A DNA stretch of 14,331 nt, from positions 1 to 14,331 of IMG/VR virus record IMGVR_UViG_2778261418_000001; one strand, written 5' to 3'. This DNA comes from a virus (taxonomy: Duplodnaviria > Heunggongvirae > Uroviricota > Caudoviricetes). A model generated the notes under the pieces. The model saw only the letters and a list, made by a program, of their open reading frames with translations, was not told the DNA's origin and did no database searches. A program made the translations under genes and the position numbers. Positions 3,922 to 13,748 of the stretch are shown piece after piece (positions within the stretch are counted from its first letter, which is position 1; each line of letters starts with the position of its first letter).

Positions 3922-3948
3922 AAAAAAATCGCCCTCACATCGGAGGGC
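3922..3948 (-). terminator. intrinsic terminator-like hairpin just upstream of the 122-aa gene
   Basis: On the minus strand: GCCCTC-cgatgt-GAGGGC followed by GATTTTTTT, about 19 nt before the RBS. Confidence 0.5.
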
Positions 3949-4052
3949 AAAGAAGATTTCCAATAATCAGAACAAGTCGGCTCCTGTTTAGTTACGAGCG
4001 ACATTGCTCCGTGTATTCACTCGTTGGAATGAATACACAGTGCTTATTTGTA

Positions 4053-5427: not shown

Positions 5428-6159
5428 TTAGTAGTCAACTACAGACCACCAGAAGATTCTTCCGATGATCTCGATATCGCTTAGATTCTTTTCTTCTTGT
5501 GGGTATTCCAGTGAGTTAAAGCTTCTAATGCTTACCTTGTCAGGCCCTGATCGAAAGAGAATCTTAATGCGTTTCCAACCGTTCTCGTTAATGGCGTAAA
5601 TCTTTCCGTCAACTATTTTCTTATCGTTGGTGTTAACAGCAACTGTTGTTCCATCAGGAATGTTTGGCTCCATGCTGTTGCCACGAGCCGGAAAACAAAC
5701 AACCCCGCTTCCATCACTGTTCGCGCCAACTCTGCGAAGGGTTGATTTGGAGAAGCGCAACATAAAGCCGTTGTGATCTTCATCAATCACCCGACCATCC
5801 CCGCATGCAAACTCAATATCTTTAAGGTAAGGAACTTCAACTTCATCACCTCTTAAAGGCGTTCCTCCATCCCATGGGTCCAAATATCCCCACGTGCTTT
5901 CATGAGGAATAGAAGATTTTGGATTATAAGGTTCAACTCCCTCATCACGCATTGGCCCAGTCCCATCGGAAAGCCATTCCGTACGAACTCCAAGCACTTT
6001 TGATATTTCAAAAAGTTTGCGCGTATTGCGTGTTTTTCCAGACGTAAGTTTCCAGACGCTTGGCTGAGACATGCCAACAGCATTGCCAAGAGAAGCCTGA
6101 GTAAACCCAGCCTGATCCATCGCGTATGTAAGCCTTTGAGAAAAAGTATCTAGTTTCAT
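5428..6159 (-). CDS. cI: CI-type prophage repressor (HTH N-domain plus LexA-like S24 autopeptidase C-domain)
   Basis: N-terminal XRE-type HTH (QASLGNAVGMSQPSVWKL). C-terminal S24 fold with the Ser motif GNSMEP and Lys in KRIK. Divergent from cro, flanked by operators; mRNA appears leaderless from pRM. Confidence 0.85.
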   Translation of the reverse strand: MKLDTFSQRLTYAMDQAGFTQASLGNAVGMSQPSVWKLTSGKTRNTRKLFEISKVLGVRTEWLSDGTGPMRDEGVEPYNPKSSIPHESTWGYLDPWDGGTPLRGDEVEVPYLKDIEFACGDGRVIDEDHNGFMLRFSKSTLRRVGANSDGSGVVCFPARGNSMEPNIPDGTTVAVNTNDKKIVDGKIYAINENGWKRIKILFRSGPDKVSIRSFNSLEYPQEEKNLSDIEIIGRIFWWSVVDY

Positions 6160-6946: not shown

Positions 6947-7591
6947 ATGACATACGAAAATGACAAATTCCAGGTTCTGAAGAGCATGAAGGTTCCAGAT
7001 GATTTTAAATCAAATGGCTTTGTTTATGTGCTTTCGAATGAGTGCATGCCAGGAATTTATAAGATTGGGATGACTAAGCATTCACCAGAAGTTAGGGCTA
7101 AAGAAATTTCAGCCTCTACTGGCGTTCCTAAGCCATTTAAGGTGATAGCAGCCTTTCATTCAAATAATCCCGCATCAGATGAAAAACTCATTCATAAAGC
7201 CTTTGCAAAAGAGAGGCTTAGTGATAATCGAGAGTTTTTCAAGCTTGAAGATAATGATCTTTCTGAATCTCTAAATGAAATAAGGGCGCTGGTTGGCCCT
7301 GAAAGAAATGGCGAGACGGCAGAATACGCAATTTACGACTCATTCATTTCTTTTCGCCATGAAAATGAGCTTGATCTTAATGAGGAGCTTATAGAGCAAG
7401 GTCTGGGTAGTGTAGTTGGTCATCTTCCTGCGGTGAAAAATTTCCTTATTCGCGCCGGAATTGATTACGCGAAGCAACTGATAAGCAAATATAACTCATC
7501 GATAGTTATTAATACAGATGGCAGTGTGGTGATGGTTAAGTCTCTTGAAGCCCAATGCTTTGATGCGGAGGTTGGAAATGAGCCTTGCTGA
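6947..7591 (+). CDS. T5orf172 (GIY-YIG-like) domain protein; moron between cII and O
   Basis: GGAG RBS. N-terminal GFVYVLSNECMPGIYKIGMTKHSPEVRAKEI ... REFFKL matches the T5orf172/MUG113 GIY-YIG-related pattern. Lambda has cII directly followed by O. Confidence 0.65.
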   Translation: MTYENDKFQVLKSMKVPDDFKSNGFVYVLSNECMPGIYKIGMTKHSPEVRAKEISASTGVPKPFKVIAAFHSNNPASDEKLIHKAFAKERLSDNREFFKLEDNDLSESLNEIRALVGPERNGETAEYAIYDSFISFRHENELDLNEELIEQGLGSVVGHLPAVKNFLIRAGIDYAKQLISKYNSSIVINTDGSVVMVKSLEAQCFDAEVGNEPC

Positions 7592-9580: not shown

Positions 9581-9613
9581 AGGCCTGCTGGTAATCGCAG
9601 GCCTTTTTATTTG
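9581..9613 (+). terminator. tR2-like intrinsic terminator between ren and ninB
   Basis: AGGCCTGC-tggtaatc-GCAGGCCT followed by TTTTATTTG. Confidence 0.6.
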
Positions 9614-9628: not shown

Positions 9629-10069
9629 ATGAAAAAACTAACCTTTGAAATTCGATCCCCAGCACATCAGCAAAACGCTATTCACGCGGTACAGCAAATT
9701 CTTCCAGACCCAACCAAACCAATCGTAGTGACCATCCAGGAACGCAACCGCAGCTTAGACCAAAATCGGAAGCTTTGGGCTTGCTTAGGTGACGTCTCTC
9801 GTCAGGTTGAATGGCATGGTCGCTGGCTGGATGCAGAAAGCTGGAAGTGTGTGTTTACCGCAGCATTAAAGCAGCAGGACGTTGTTCCTAACCTTGCCGG
9901 GAATGGCTTTGTGGTAATAGGCCAGTCAACCAGCAGGATGCGTGTAAGCGAATTTGCGGAGCTATTAGAGCTTATACAGGCATTCGGTACAGAGCGTGGC
10001 GTTAAGTGGTCAGACGAAGCGCGACTGGCTCTCGAATGGAAAGCGCGATGGGGAGATCGGGCTGCATGA
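9629..10069 (+). CDS. ninB: NinB recombination protein
   Basis: From MKKLTFEIRSPAHQQNAIHAVQQILPDPTKP... the protein is essentially identical to lambda NinB as recalled from memory. Confidence 0.9.
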   Translation: MKKLTFEIRSPAHQQNAIHAVQQILPDPTKPIVVTIQERNRSLDQNRKLWACLGDVSRQVEWHGRWLDAESWKCVFTAALKQQDVVPNLAGNGFVVIGQSTSRMRVSEFAELLELIQAFGTERGVKWSDEARLALEWKARWGDRAA

Positions 10070-10590
10070 CTATCAAATCAAATACGCCAGCGTCAGATAG
10101 GTATCGGCTTATTGAGGATTATCTGTATTTAGACGGAGATACAGTCAGGTACAAAAAGGACTCGCTAAAACACCCCAACCACAGCCACCGGGCCGGAGAT
10201 GAAATTAAAACATCGATAAATGGATCTGGGTATAGACAGGTGTGTTTTGCAGGCATTCAGATGTTTGTTCACGTAGTTGTTTTTGCGCTGCACAACAAAA
10301 GAATGCCATTGAAAAATATTGACCATATTAACGGAAACAGGCTGGACAATTCCCCAAAAAATCTTAGGGAGGCAAGCCGGATAGCAAACAGCCGAAATCA
10401 GAAAACTAAGTGCAATAGCCGTTCTGGAATAAAAAATGTTTTATGGAACAAGCAAAAAAATAAATGGGCCGTTCAAGTGCGCACAGATTTTGGCCGGTTG
10501 CATTTTGGGTTCTATGAAGATCTTGAGCTTGCTGGTTTGGTTGCCAGTGAGGCTATCAACAAATATCACGGACAATATGCGAGGGTTTAA
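10066..10590 (+). CDS. HNH endonuclease with AP2-like DNA-binding domain (free-standing homing-endonuclease type)
   Basis: ATG 10066 overlaps the ninB stop (ATGA). HNH motif IDHINGNRLDNSPKNLR. C-terminal AP2-like WNKQKNKWAVQV...GFYEDLELAG. Inserted between ninB and the next nin gene. Confidence 0.8.
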   Translation: MTIKSNTPASDRYRLIEDYLYLDGDTVRYKKDSLKHPNHSHRAGDEIKTSINGSGYRQVCFAGIQMFVHVVVFALHNKRMPLKNIDHINGNRLDNSPKNLREASRIANSRNQKTKCNSRSGIKNVLWNKQKNKWAVQVRTDFGRLHFGFYEDLELAGLVASEAINKYHGQYARV

Positions 10591-11120
10591 TGATTAAGCA
10601 TAAATCAGAAACACCAAAAGAAGTTAGAGACTGCTGGCAAACGCCGCTTTGGCTTTTTGATGCACTGGATATTGAGTTTGGATTCTGGCTGGATTCGGCA
10701 GCGAGCGACAAAAATGCTCTGTGCGCTCACTGGCTAACTGAGGCCGACGACGCACTCAATTCTGAGTGGATAAGCCACGGTGCAATCTGGAATAACCCAC
10801 CGTACAGCAATATCAGGCCGTGGGTGGAAAAAGCCGCTGAGCAGTGCATACAACAGCGACAGACGGTAGTGATGCTTGTGCCAGAGGATATGTCTGTCGG
10901 ATGGTTCAGCAAGGCTCTGGAGAGTGTTGACGAAGTTCGCATTATCACTGATGGACGGATTAATTTTATCGAACCATCGACAGGGCTGGAGAAGAAGGGA
11001 AACAGTAAAGGCTCCATGCTGCTGATTTGGCGACCGTTCATCAGTCCTCGACGGATGTTTACTACCGTATCCAAAGCGGCATTGATGGCGATCGGGCAGG
11101 GCGTCAGGAGGGCGGCATGA
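10590..11120 (+). CDS. dam: phage Dam-type DNA N6-adenine methyltransferase
   Basis: Catalytic NPPY motif (IWNNPPYSN), size and nin-region position typical of phage orphan N6-adenine methyltransferases. TAATG overlap with the HNH gene. Confidence 0.8.
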
Positions 11121-11299
11121 GACGACAGCGACGAAGTATCACCGACATAATCTGCGAAAACTGCAAATACCTTCCAACGAAGCGCTCCAGAAATAAACGC
11201 AAGCAAATCCCAAAAGAATCTGACGTAAAAACCTTCAATTACACGGCTCACCTGTGGGATATCCGGTGGCTTAGAGAACGTGCGAGGAAAACAAGGTGA
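11117..11299 (+). CDS. ninE: NinE
   Basis: [60 protein letters not shown] is near-identical to lambda NinE as recalled. ATGA overlap with dam. Confidence 0.85.
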
Positions 11300-11466
11300 T
11301 TGACCCAAATCGAAGTTACGAACAAGAAAGCGTCGAGCGGGCTTTAACGTGCGCTAACTGCGGTCAGAAGCTGCATTTTCTGGAAGTTCACGTGTGCTCC
11401 GATTGCTGCGCAGAACTGATGAGCGATCCGAATAGCTCAATGTACGAGGAAGAAGACGATGAATGA
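11296..11466 (+). CDS. ninF: NinF (56 aa, GTG start)
   Basis: Not in the ORF track. GTG at 11296 overlaps the ninE stop. Translation [56 protein letters not shown] matches lambda NinF. Confidence 0.8.
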
Positions 11467-12181
11467 GTTAATAAATGGCAATGCCATCAAAATGACAAGC
11501 ATTGAAATCGCTGAGTTGGTGGGTAAGCGTCATGACAATGTGAAACGTACCATCGAAACGCTGGCTAAAAATGGTGTTATCCGGCTTCCTCAAATTGAGG
11601 TTTCCGAAAGAATCAATAACTTAGGGTTCAATGTTCAGTACGAGCATTACGTCTTCGAAGGCGAACAAGGTAAGCGAGATAGTATTGTTGTTGTTGCCCA
11701 GTTGTCGCCGGAATTCACCGCTCGTCTTGTTGACCGTTGGCGAGAGCTTGAAGAAGCTGCGGTTAATATCCCAAAAACGCTACCAGAAGCGTTGCGCCTT
11801 GCTGCTGATCTTGCTGAGCAGAAAATGCAACTGGAAAACCAGCTTGCAATTGCCGCACCTAAAGTTGAGTTTGCCGATCGCGTTGGCGAGGCCAGCGGAA
11901 TTTTGATTGGAAACTTTGCAAAGGTTGTCGGTATTGGTCCAAACAAACTGTTTGCGTGGATGCGCGATCACAAAATCCTTATTGCTTCAGGTTCCCGGCG
12001 CAATGTGCCAATGCAGGAATATATGGATCGCGGCTATTTCACAGTGAAAGAAACAGCGGTCAACACAAATCACGGAATACAGATATCGTTCACCACAAAA
12101 ATCACCGGGCGTGGTCAACAGTGGCTGACCAGAAAGCTGCTCGATAACGGAATGCTGAAAGTAACAGGGGAGGCTGCTTAA
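11459..12181 (+). CDS. antirepressor-like protein (Rha-type N-domain plus KilA-C/Ant C-domain)
   Basis: N-terminus (MTSIEIAELVGKRHDNVKRTIETL) resembles the Rha regulatory domain. The C-terminal half (FAKVVGIGPNKLFAWMRDHKIL...) resembles the KilA-C antirepressor domain. Inserted between ninF and ybcO. Confidence 0.7.
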   Translation: MNELINGNAIKMTSIEIAELVGKRHDNVKRTIETLAKNGVIRLPQIEVSERINNLGFNVQYEHYVFEGEQGKRDSIVVVAQLSPEFTARLVDRWRELEEAAVNIPKTLPEALRLAADLAEQKMQLENQLAIAAPKVEFADRVGEASGILIGNFAKVVGIGPNKLFAWMRDHKILIASGSRRNVPMQEYMDRGYFTVKETAVNTNHGIQISFTTKITGRGQQWLTRKLLDNGMLKVTGEAA

Positions 12182-12471
12182 TGGCTAACCTACGCAAAGA
12201 AGCACGCGGCAGAGAATGCCAGGTACGTATTTACGGAATATGCAATGGTAATCCTGAAACTACAGTTCTGGCACATTACCGGATGGCTGGAATTTGCGGA
12301 ACGGGAATGAAGCCTGACGACCTGATCGGCGCATGGGCTTGTAGCGCGTGTCACGATGAAATCGACCGACGCACCCATAACCTCGACAACAAAGACGCCA
12401 GACTTTACCACCTGGAAGGCGTGATCAGGACGCAGGCGATACTGCTGAAGGAGGGGAAGATTAAGCCATGA
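12181..12471 (+). CDS. ybcO: YbcO-like DUF1364 protein (Cys-rich, putative nuclease)
   Basis: 96 aa with a conserved Cys pattern (CQVRIYGICNG...CSACHDEIDRR). Same size and position (before rusA) as DLP12 YbcO. Confidence 0.65.
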   Translation: MANLRKEARGRECQVRIYGICNGNPETTVLAHYRMAGICGTGMKPDDLIGAWACSACHDEIDRRTHNLDNKDARLYHLEGVIRTQAILLKEGKIKP

Positions 12472-12830: not shown

Positions 12831-13015
12831 ACGCCACAATTCAAACGATACCAGAGCTTCTTATCCAGACACGAGGTAATCAGACCGAAGTGGCGAGGAT
12901 GCTTTCCTGCGCAAGAGGAACAGTGCTCAAGTACAACCGAGACAGAAAAGGCGAGCGTCACGTAATAGTTAACGGCGTCCTGATGGTCACGCCAGGCAAA
13001 AAGGGAAGACGATGA
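12827..13015 (+). CDS. ninH: NinH-like small DNA-binding protein
   Basis: IPELLIQTRGNQTEVARMLSCARGTVLKYNRDRKGERHVIVNGVLMV aligns with lambda NinH (IPDMLVEAYGNQTEVARRLKCSRGTVRKYVDDKDGKMHAIVNDVLMV). Confidence 0.75.
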   Translation: MNATIQTIPELLIQTRGNQTEVARMLSCARGTVLKYNRDRKGERHVIVNGVLMVTPGKKGRR

Positions 13016-13530
13016 GCATAAGAGAACTAAACCTCACCAAAGAACAGCACGAGTGGCTGAATGGCTGGCTTGAACTGTGGGGCGCATGGGTTTATTCAGG
13101 TCGTCTGGAAAAGCGTATGAGCAGCGTAATAGCGAAGTTCATGGAGAGCGTAGAGCCGGGAAGAGTTATGACAAGGCCAATGTGCAATGATGATGATGGA
13201 ATGTTGATTTCTCAGGTCGTCGATTCCGTCATGTACATTGACAAAAAAGCCTTTGGCATCCTCCTCAGCTACTACGCTCATGGTTCATCTAAGCGAGCAA
13301 TTGCATCCTACTATCACGCGACTGCAAAGCCACGCAAGATGTGTGGACGTGGTGGCGAGGGATGGAGAAAACCTTCACTGGCAACCTGTAGAAACGAAAT
13401 TGACGACATCCTGAAAGCGTCATTATTTGTTTTATACCAGCCGATGCAAAATGCTTTCAAAATGCGTAAACGTGTTGAGAAAGTTAAGCATATTGCTGTT
13501 AAAAGCCTTGACATGCAATTATCCATTTAG
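13012..13530 (+). CDS. Q: late-gene antiterminator Q (QuuD/phage 21-82 type, not lambda-Q type)
   Basis: Pattern LELWGAW ... RPMCNDDDGML ... LLSYYAHG parallels DLP12 QuuD (ERWGAW ... RPQCCDDDAMI ... LLVDYYVVG) as recalled. Last gene before the putative late promoter. Confidence 0.8.
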   Translation: MSIRELNLTKEQHEWLNGWLELWGAWVYSGRLEKRMSSVIAKFMESVEPGRVMTRPMCNDDDGMLISQVVDSVMYIDKKAFGILLSYYAHGSSKRAIASYYHATAKPRKMCGRGGEGWRKPSLATCRNEIDDILKASLFVLYQPMQNAFKMRKRVEKVKHIAVKSLDMQLSI

Positions 13531-13537
13531 CCATAAT
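13508..13537 (+). promoter_or_regulatory. putative late promoter pR' overlapping the 3' end of Q
   Basis: TTGACA (13508-13513), 18-bp spacer, CATAAT (13532-13537). The hairpin with U-run ~10 nt downstream would give a short terminated transcript, as in lambdoid pR'/tR'. Confidence 0.5.
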
Positions 13538-13592: not shown

Positions 13593-13667
13593 GGGTCAGT
13601 CGTATAAAGGTCATTACGGAAGGCTGTTAACCTTCTTATCGTGGTTCGAGTCCACGCTGTCCCGCCA
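13593..13667 (+). tRNA. tRNA, anticodon GUU (Asn) by manual fold; imperfect stems
   Basis: 75 nt cloverleaf. Anticodon arm GAAGG-CTGTTAA-CCTTC, T-arm CGTGG-TTCGAGT-CCACG, 3' GCCA. One mismatch each in the acceptor and D stems, so it may be divergent or a pseudo-tRNA. Confidence 0.55.
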
Positions 13668-13672
13668 AATAT

Positions 13673-13748
13673 GCTGGTTTAGCTCCAATGGTAGAGCGGT
13701 CGCCTTGTAAGCGAATGGGTAGCGGTTCAAGTCCGTTAACCAGCACCA
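13673..13748 (+). tRNA. tRNA, anticodon UGU (Thr) by manual fold
   Basis: 76 nt. Perfect 7-bp acceptor stem (GCTGGTT/AACCAGC), D-arm GCTC-CAATGGTA-GAGC, anticodon loop CTTGTAA, T-arm AGCGG-TTCAAGT-CCGTT, ACCA 3' end. Confidence 0.7.

Follow-up and report, generated by a model that had tools for sequence, protein, structure and literature searches.

A predicted IHF site inside roi, a nin-region gene for a two-module Rha–KilAC protein in a lambdoid phage

The gene roi was reportedly first described in coliphage HK022, by Clerget and Boccard in 1996. In their account Roi is said to bind at a point in roi that adjoins an IHF site, IHF reportedly stabilises this binding, and the escape mutants are said to be mutants with weaker DNA binding. 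To go by its title, as cited in PMC3430580 and PMC4587872, the founding paper reports that Roi inhibits lytic growth in IHF mutants. Rha of phages phi80 and P22 blocks phage growth in IHF-defective hosts (PMC4936722), and the Rha domain has been described as a winged helix-turn-helix (PMC8951638). In Stx phages, where roi lies just upstream of the antiterminator gene Q, roi is sometimes disrupted by IS629 (PMC4587872). Although roi has had its name since 1996 and is widely annotated, the biochemical role of Roi is still poorly defined, and our literature search for functional work on Roi after 1996 returned secondary mentions only. Annotation pipelines label the protein inconsistently, as ‘anti-repressor Ant’, ‘KilAC domain protein’ or ‘DNA-binding protein’; the first of these is the name of PHROG 63, which matches the Roi protein analysed here (1e-99).

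The roi copy examined here lies in a 14,331-nucleotide (14.3-kb) stretch of phage DNA, the whole of which we call the window. The window is a mosaic HK97/HK022-type lambdoid early region, of which any single record covers 59% at most. A previous, sequence-only reading had placed an open reading frame at 11459–12181, and the frame is present at exactly these positions on the + strand (Table 1). In amino acid sequence its product shares 99% identity with HK620 Roi and 88% with HK022 Roi, the latter over 241 aa (E 4e-159). At the DNA level the gene matches 220 phage records that are 91–99% identical (in 214 the match spans 80% of the gene or more), and many of the matching records name it roi or its product DNA-binding protein Roi (HK022, HK620, H-19B, CUS-3, phage 86 and P27). 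About a fifth of complete E. coli genomes (1110 of 5426) also carry it, with up to four copies per genome. Relatives of Roi are encoded in 557 viral contigs; the best 80 of these 557 hold 99–100% identical copies, which are informative for synteny and not for diversity. Since the cluster holding the identical protein has 2355 member sequences and 7183 cluster representatives (50% identity) match Roi at E ≤ 1e-3, the open reading frame stands far beyond chance. It is the known gene roi, a nin-region DNA-binding regulator gene; as such it is already known and ordinary, being common to HK022, HK97, HK620, H-19B, 933W/VT2-Sakai and many Stx phages.

Table 1. Positions in the window of roi, its internal features and the neighbouring elements discussed in the text
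Feature	Positions	Strand	Remarks and basis
roi coding sequence	11459..12181	+	ATG to TAA, 240 aa + stop; ORF list
GAGGA ribosome-binding site	11446..11450	+	8 nt 5' of roi ATG, within the end of ninF; read from sequence
Rha-family winged-helix domain, N-terminal	11492..11755	+	aa 12-99
Allelic (mosaic) N-domain segment	11522..11656	+	aa 22-66; protein and DNA alignments
IHF consensus match AATCAATAACTTA (WATCAANNNNTTR)	11611..11623	+	codons R-I-N-N-L, aa 51-55, wing tip loop
Long linker helix joining the two domains	11780..11890	+	aa 108-144; AF2 model; within the segment shared with P1 Ant1 and KilA
KilAC/ANT domain, C-terminal	11834..12142	+	aa 126-228; Pfam PF03374
ninF, upstream gene, same operon	11296..11466	+	Pfam NinF PF05810, 5.7e-13
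roi start / ninF end overlap, ATGAATGA	11459..11466	+	8 nt; indicates translational coupling
roi stop / ybcO start overlap, TAATG	12177..12183	+	
ybcO/hkbD (DUF1364), downstream gene	12181..12471	+	Pfam YbcO PF07102, 2.8e-44
tR2-like intrinsic terminator upstream of ninB	9581..9604	+	8-bp stem, 6 GC pairs, then T-run; terminator scan
Antiterminator Q	13012..13530	+	about 830 bp 3' of roi, same transcript; Pfam Phage_antitermQ, 1.1e-25
CI repressor, HTH + S24 self-cleaving (LexA-like) type	5428..6159	-	Pfam Peptidase_S24 3.7e-15, HTH_3

The sequence-only reading had called Roi a Rha and KilAC protein, and a domain search recovered both domains above the Pfam gathering thresholds. Phage_pRha (PF09669) scored 36.7 bits against a cut-off of 29.9 (E 6.3e-09), and ANT/KilAC (PF03374) scored 113.5 bits against a cut-off of 25.3 (E 7.7e-33). 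Among 60 diverse homologues, 58 matched Phage_pRha and all 60 matched ANT/KilAC. Against the NCBIfam model TIGR02681 (phage_pRha) Roi reached 17.9 bits, below the curated cut-off of 45.95, which places it outside this narrower subfamily. The helix-turn-helix DNA-binding domain that marks the Roi group is present in the protein studied here. Searches of PDB sequences, both with the single Roi protein and with a profile, gave nothing significant. An AlphaFold2 (AF2) model built from a shallow alignment limited to sequences of 85% identity or more was discarded (pLDDT 40), and a run with 60 diverse homologues produced a confident model (mean pLDDT 90, pTM 0.52). In this model the N-terminal winged helix is made of a strand (residues 11–13), two helices (14–21 and 25–37) and a β-hairpin (45–52/58–67), followed by helices in the segment 68–101. 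The linker is a helix of 37 residues, and the C-terminal domain (pLDDT about 96) once more consists of two short helices (150–157 and 161–170) and a β-hairpin (194–215), closed by a helix at 217–229. Roi is, as modelled, a two-module protein in which a Rha-family winged helix is joined by a long helix to a KilAC module.

The IHF consensus WATCAANNNNTTR is matched exactly only once in the whole window, and this match lies inside roi, in the N-terminal domain. Because about one match is expected by chance in 14.3 kb, the argument for an IHF site in roi rests on the pattern of its conservation. The consensus is found at the same codons in H-19B roi, in HK022 roi despite the diverged allele of that gene, and in P22 rha, whose 13-mer is identical to that of roi though the two proteins are only 40% identical in this region. 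The homologous stretch of the HK022 record lies at 34807–34819. Among 19 graded homologues, the consensus was present in 10/10 that carry the peptide I-N-x-L, and it was absent from the entire gene in all nine that do not (0/9). Codon usage around the site follows the same line. Seven diverged alleles share 15 degenerate columns at which the amino acid is invariant, and of these only the core Ile (ATC) and Leu (TTA) are written with a single codon; the invariant Gly next to the IHF core uses all four of its codons.

The same pattern was seen in a larger sample of 170 roi/rha loci, pooled by peptide motif only and not by DNA, which gave 35 distinct haplotypes. The consensus was matched in 35 of the 35. 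All four N positions of the consensus vary among these haplotypes, including amino acid changes between N, D, E and G, as do all 10 flanking third-codon positions. By comparison, only W varies among the nine specified positions, and only from A to T, as the consensus permits; Ile is always ATC and Leu is always TTA. Conservation of the 13-mer could be a mere result of the protein motif INNLG. We rejected this as the sole cause, since the middle residue of the motif changes among four amino acids, the adjacent Gly draws on four codons, and the Ile and Leu codons never change across the 35 haplotypes. The predicted IHF site in roi is, as judged from these alignments, under purifying selection at the DNA level across the roi and rha lineages, and its variation has the footprint expected of such a site. 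In the AF2 model the codons of the site fall in the wing-tip loop, where, on this model, such a constraint on the DNA can be tolerated.

Conservation of the predicted site agrees with reports that Roi and Rha depend on IHF. If the account attributed to Clerget and Boccard holds, the match in Table 1 is very probably their published site, and so not new for HK022; how widely the site occurs among Rha-family genes may be less well recognised. An IHF consensus within the coding sequence offers a precise target for explaining why phages with Roi or Rha depend on IHF for growth. We looked for a Roi operator around the IHF site, as direct or inverted repeats, and obtained only short, unconvincing matches. 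The palindrome at 11650–11663 was considered as such an operator and set aside, as it is not conserved in HK620 or HK022.

In the window the genes run in the order ninB, an HNH gene, dam, ninE, ninF, roi, ybcO, rusA, ninH and Q. The HNH gene, at about 10.2–10.6 kb and with 40% GC, looks far more insertion-like than roi. Pfam matches identify the upstream neighbour of roi as ninF and the downstream neighbour as ybcO, as the sequence-only reading had named them. HK022 and HK620 have the same order, ninE-ninF-roi-hkbD(ybcO)-rusA-ninH-Q, and H-19B and Stx phages have ninF-roi-ninG. Synteny comparison placed roi at the same position across HK022, HK620 and the best 80 of the 557 viral contigs; in these contigs ninF precedes roi in 80/80, and roi is followed by ybcO in 71 and by ninG in 7. 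It had also been proposed that roi is not part of the lambda nin set, and this was borne out: ninF abuts ninG directly in P22, and H-19B carries roi with homologues of lambda orf56 and orf204 on either side. As roi is lacking from lambda and P22 at the ninF/ninG junction, it behaves as a presence/absence module.

Absence from this junction is the one observation in favour of the proposal, made together with the previous claim, that roi is an acquired moron, and in favour of the wider reading of roi as a moron or accessory cargo (e.g. for defence or lysogenic conversion), recently inserted and expressed from the prophage for the benefit of the host. The remaining observations did not uphold either. 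Within the window we found neither promoter-like nor terminator-like sites flanking 11459–12181, and the counts of such sites in the window were not above those in shuffled sequence; the only hairpins near roi lie within coding sequence. The gene overlaps both of its neighbours and appears translationally coupled to them, and its GC content (0.46–0.48) equals that of the surroundings (0.46–0.52 in the flanking genes). A PADLOC defence screen of Roi gave no match. Furthermore, roi is a named gene whose position is fixed in hundreds of phages, and the description of the Gally prophage lists it among the transcriptional regulators of the phage (PMC9928086). We therefore regard recent cargo as scarcely credible. 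The module encoding Roi is mosaic and belongs to the standard make-up of one large class of lambdoid phages.

We consider it probable, with a fair margin for doubt, that roi encodes an IHF-assisted, delayed-early, site-specific DNA-binding regulator that modulates the lytic programme. From the anatomy of the region, roi would be a delayed-early gene that lacks its own promoter and depends on pR for transcription. Its transcription would follow once CI is inactivated and N lets RNA polymerase pass the tR2-like terminator, which lies at a place equivalent to the tR2 annotated in the HK620 record, and translation would be coupled within ninF-roi-ybcO. Roi and IHF would then bind together to DNA that lies in the roi gene or adjoins it, as is reportedly the case in HK022. 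The resulting nucleoprotein complex of Roi and IHF on the early-right unit upstream of Q may tune lytic development. When IHF is missing, wild-type Roi would instead block lytic growth, again in line with what is reported for HK022.

The sequence-only reading had described Roi as an Ant-type protein that could mediate cross-prophage induction. The homology to an antirepressor stood in the case of P1 Ant1, via the C-terminal module: residues 73–234 of Roi are 59% identical to residues 178–342 of Ant1 over 165 aa (E 1e-66), and the sole Pfam domain of Ant1 is PF03374, which Roi also carries. There was no meaningful likeness to P22 Ant, for which the best local match in a pairwise comparison spans 37 aa at E 0.001, a chance-level result. 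The antirepressor label of Roi can thus be traced to P1 Ant through the common C-terminal module, and not to P22 Ant. This module is promiscuous. More than 1000 phage records show it joined to a Bro-N, AntA, KilA-N or Rha N-domain, and their hosts include both Gram-negative and Gram-positive bacteria. As far as the alignments indicate, the module is the only part through which Roi is homologous to antirepressors.

Taken at face value, this likeness would make Roi a true antirepressor whose P1-Ant-like module inactivates its own CI, or that of a co-resident prophage, and so spreads induction in trans. According to the P1 record, Ant ‘antagonizes C1 repression by formation of Ant1/Ant2/C1 complex’, and many E. 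coli strains carry several lambdoid prophages, with the multiple roi copies per genome noted above. The expression of roi is at odds with such a function. Because the gene belongs to the pR operon, lies behind the tR2-like terminator and has no promoter of its own, Roi would be made only after the CI of its own prophage is already gone. Known trans-acting antirepressors are under independent control, by Arc/Mnt/sar for P22 ant and by c4 RNA for P1 ant; for roi we found no independent control of the own-promoter, LexA, Mnt/Arc or antisense RNA type, and its start overlaps ninF. A scan of the window for LexA boxes gave seven one-mismatch matches against 4.6 expected, none of them next to roi; the only one in the nin region is at 10894, inside dam.

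The presumed target and the family relations of Roi also argue against an antirepressor. The CI encoded in the window is of the S24 self-cleaving type, which needs no antirepressor for SOS induction and which is not known to be related to P1 C1. Roi-type two-domain proteins are found in virulent phages that have no lysogeny repressor (among them Vibrio phage ICP1 and the Salmonella Jersey viruses). The same C-terminal module is present in P1 KilA, which is not an antirepressor, and the characterised orthologue of Roi is described as a DNA-binding protein. We consider it quite unlikely that Roi is a true antirepressor, and cross-prophage induction by Roi, which no finding of this analysis supports, is disfavoured.

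A two-handed switch would combine both modules of the protein. In this scheme the Rha wing and the IHF site of the gene would tether and dose Roi according to the level of IHF in the host, and hence to growth phase, and the C-terminal module would capture the repressor of a co-resident lambdoid prophage, thereby spreading induction. We give this scheme very little weight. A better supported idea than the two-handed switch is that the self-embedded, predicted IHF site serves throughout the Rha/Roi family as a conserved cis-element, with at least one virulent Salmonella phage among its carriers. If this is true, Rha and Roi genes would be self-contained IHF sensors.

The C-terminal module also raises the possibility that Roi is mainly a host-directed effector of the Kil type, in which KilAC inhibits a host process such as cell division while the phage grows lytically, and the Rha domain and IHF site only keep the dose in check. 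The module shares 67% identity with the C-terminus of P1 KilA, for which the P1 record notes ‘product can kill host’, and its occurrence in virulent phages fits a role in host takeover. The KilA-C domain of Gp07 of staphylococcal phage phi11 is sufficient for growth inhibition and filamentation when overexpressed in E. coli (PMC5944126), though these data come from heterologous overexpression, and some Ant-domain proteins have been reported to be toxic (PMC2701414). On the other hand, IHF-dependent growth inhibition is common to Rha of P22 and phi80, which does so without a KilAC module. As the phenotype is shared with a Rha protein of this kind (P22 Rha consists of Phage_pRha and ORF11CD3), it tracks with the N-terminal domain. 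We believe that a mainly Kil-type function is unlikely. Neither the antirepressor reading nor the Kil-type reading is mutually exclusive with an IHF-assisted regulator, and both are compatible with that model.

Among the known systems, P22 Ant resembles Roi only in the functional label given by annotation pipelines; its Pfam domains are P22_AR_N and P22_AR_C. P1 Ant1/Ant2 shares with Roi the linker helix and the KilAC module (59% identical), and both score on PF03374. Unlike Roi, P1 Ant has a different N-terminal part without a Rha domain; c4 RNA controls it at the post-transcriptional level in the immI operon, and its target is P1 C1. P1 KilA and phi11 Gp07 are built like Roi, with a DNA-binding N-domain fused to KilAC, and the C-module of P1 KilA is 67% identical to that of Roi. 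In these proteins, however, the N-domain is KilA-N or Bro-N as opposed to Rha, and host killing or filamentation is documented for them (P1 record; PMC5944126).

Rha of P22 (orf201) and phi80 is like Roi in its Phage_pRha winged-helix domain (40% identity over 43 aa), in carrying the same IHF 13-mer on the same wing-loop codons, and in the reported growth inhibition in IHF-deficient hosts (PMC4936722). P22 Rha differs from Roi in its C-terminal domain, which is ORF11CD3 and not KilAC, and in the location of its gene, which follows the lysis genes in the late region and is not part of the nin region. HK022 Roi agrees with the Roi described here in length, in its position between P and Q, in its two domains and in its internal IHF consensus. 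All differences between the two proteins are confined to residues 22–66, and the remainder of the gene is nearly identical. In this segment the Roi described here has the HK620/H-19B-type allele and not the HK022 type, which is its sole difference from HK022 Roi, and its DNA-recognition specificity may therefore differ from that of HK022 Roi.

The Roi-type N-domain was found joined to a different, non-KilAC C-terminal half in phage PhiR49_2 and Stx2d phage 112808 (comparison loci L085 and L090, each at 1201-1908 of the locus). Both fusion genes retain the IHF site that lies within roi, and both are located directly 3' of cro, in the usual position of cII and not in the nin region. In the Stx phages VT2-Sakai and Min27 (L086 and L088), a separate 'ant' gene is located in the nin region immediately upstream of roi, placing two KilAC-labelled genes next to each other; the presence of 'ant' beside roi in Stx phages has been noted previously (PMC3430580). 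Two further forms were found among the roi-cluster protein records P0006/P0007 and P0001/P0002. Some E. coli records contain a 294-aa protein in which NinB (PF05772) is fused to the KilAC part of Roi, apparently the product of a ninB-roi deletion, and others contain 304-aa Roi forms with an N-terminal extension of 64 aa.

Full two-domain Roi-type proteins are also encoded by virulent phages, namely Salmonella phage FSL SP-101 (L096), Vibrio phage ICP1 (ORF112; L097) and Salmonella phage S138 (L098). FSL SP-101 retains the identical IHF 13-mer. Among the loci of its close relatives, the I-N-x-L-G loop was entirely absent in 29 of 31.

Additional features located in the window around and within roi
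Feature	Position	Strand	Details
GIY-YIG-type ORF	6947-7591	+	Pfam T5orf172 / MUG113
HNH endonuclease ORF	10006-10590	+	Pfam HNH_3, 5.5e-11; PHROG 99
Terminator-like hairpin in roi, antisense	11829-11844	-	Terminator scan
Near-consensus sigma-70 promoter	13508-13537	+	TTGACA, 18-nt spacer, CATAAT; 11/12 matches
tRNA-Asn(GTT) + tRNA-Thr(TGT)	13593-13748	+	5 nt apart, between Q and holin gene

The HNH endonuclease ORF, which overlaps the end of ninB, separates that gene from dam. Its GC content of 0.40 is the lowest of the region, and PADLOC returned a weak 'homing endonuclease' match. Compared with roi, this ORF has much more of the appearance of a recently inserted sequence or a homing element. 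The GIY-YIG-type ORF is placed between cII and the replication gene O. It matched the candidate-defence model PDC-S57 (E = 6.4e-29) as well as the nuclease part of PD-Lambda-1, and may encode a homing nuclease or else be a defence gene carried by the prophage.

The hairpin on the antisense strand of roi might mark the end point of an antisense RNA of the paQ type. In the Gally prophage, a close relative with a roi 98.8% identical, antisense transcripts in macrophages begin at Q and reach up to roi (PMC9928086). The sigma-70 promoter, which overlaps the end of the antiterminator gene Q, is presumably the late promoter pR'.

Phage P1, like the window, carries an adjacent tRNA-Asn/tRNA-Thr pair. 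In the P1 record, a predicted IHF-binding site is annotated within ant1, at the start of ant2 (48945-48957; 3946-3958 of comparison locus L099). P1 ant1 is, like roi, a KilAC-family gene with an internal predicted IHF site, although the positions of the two sites are non-homologous.
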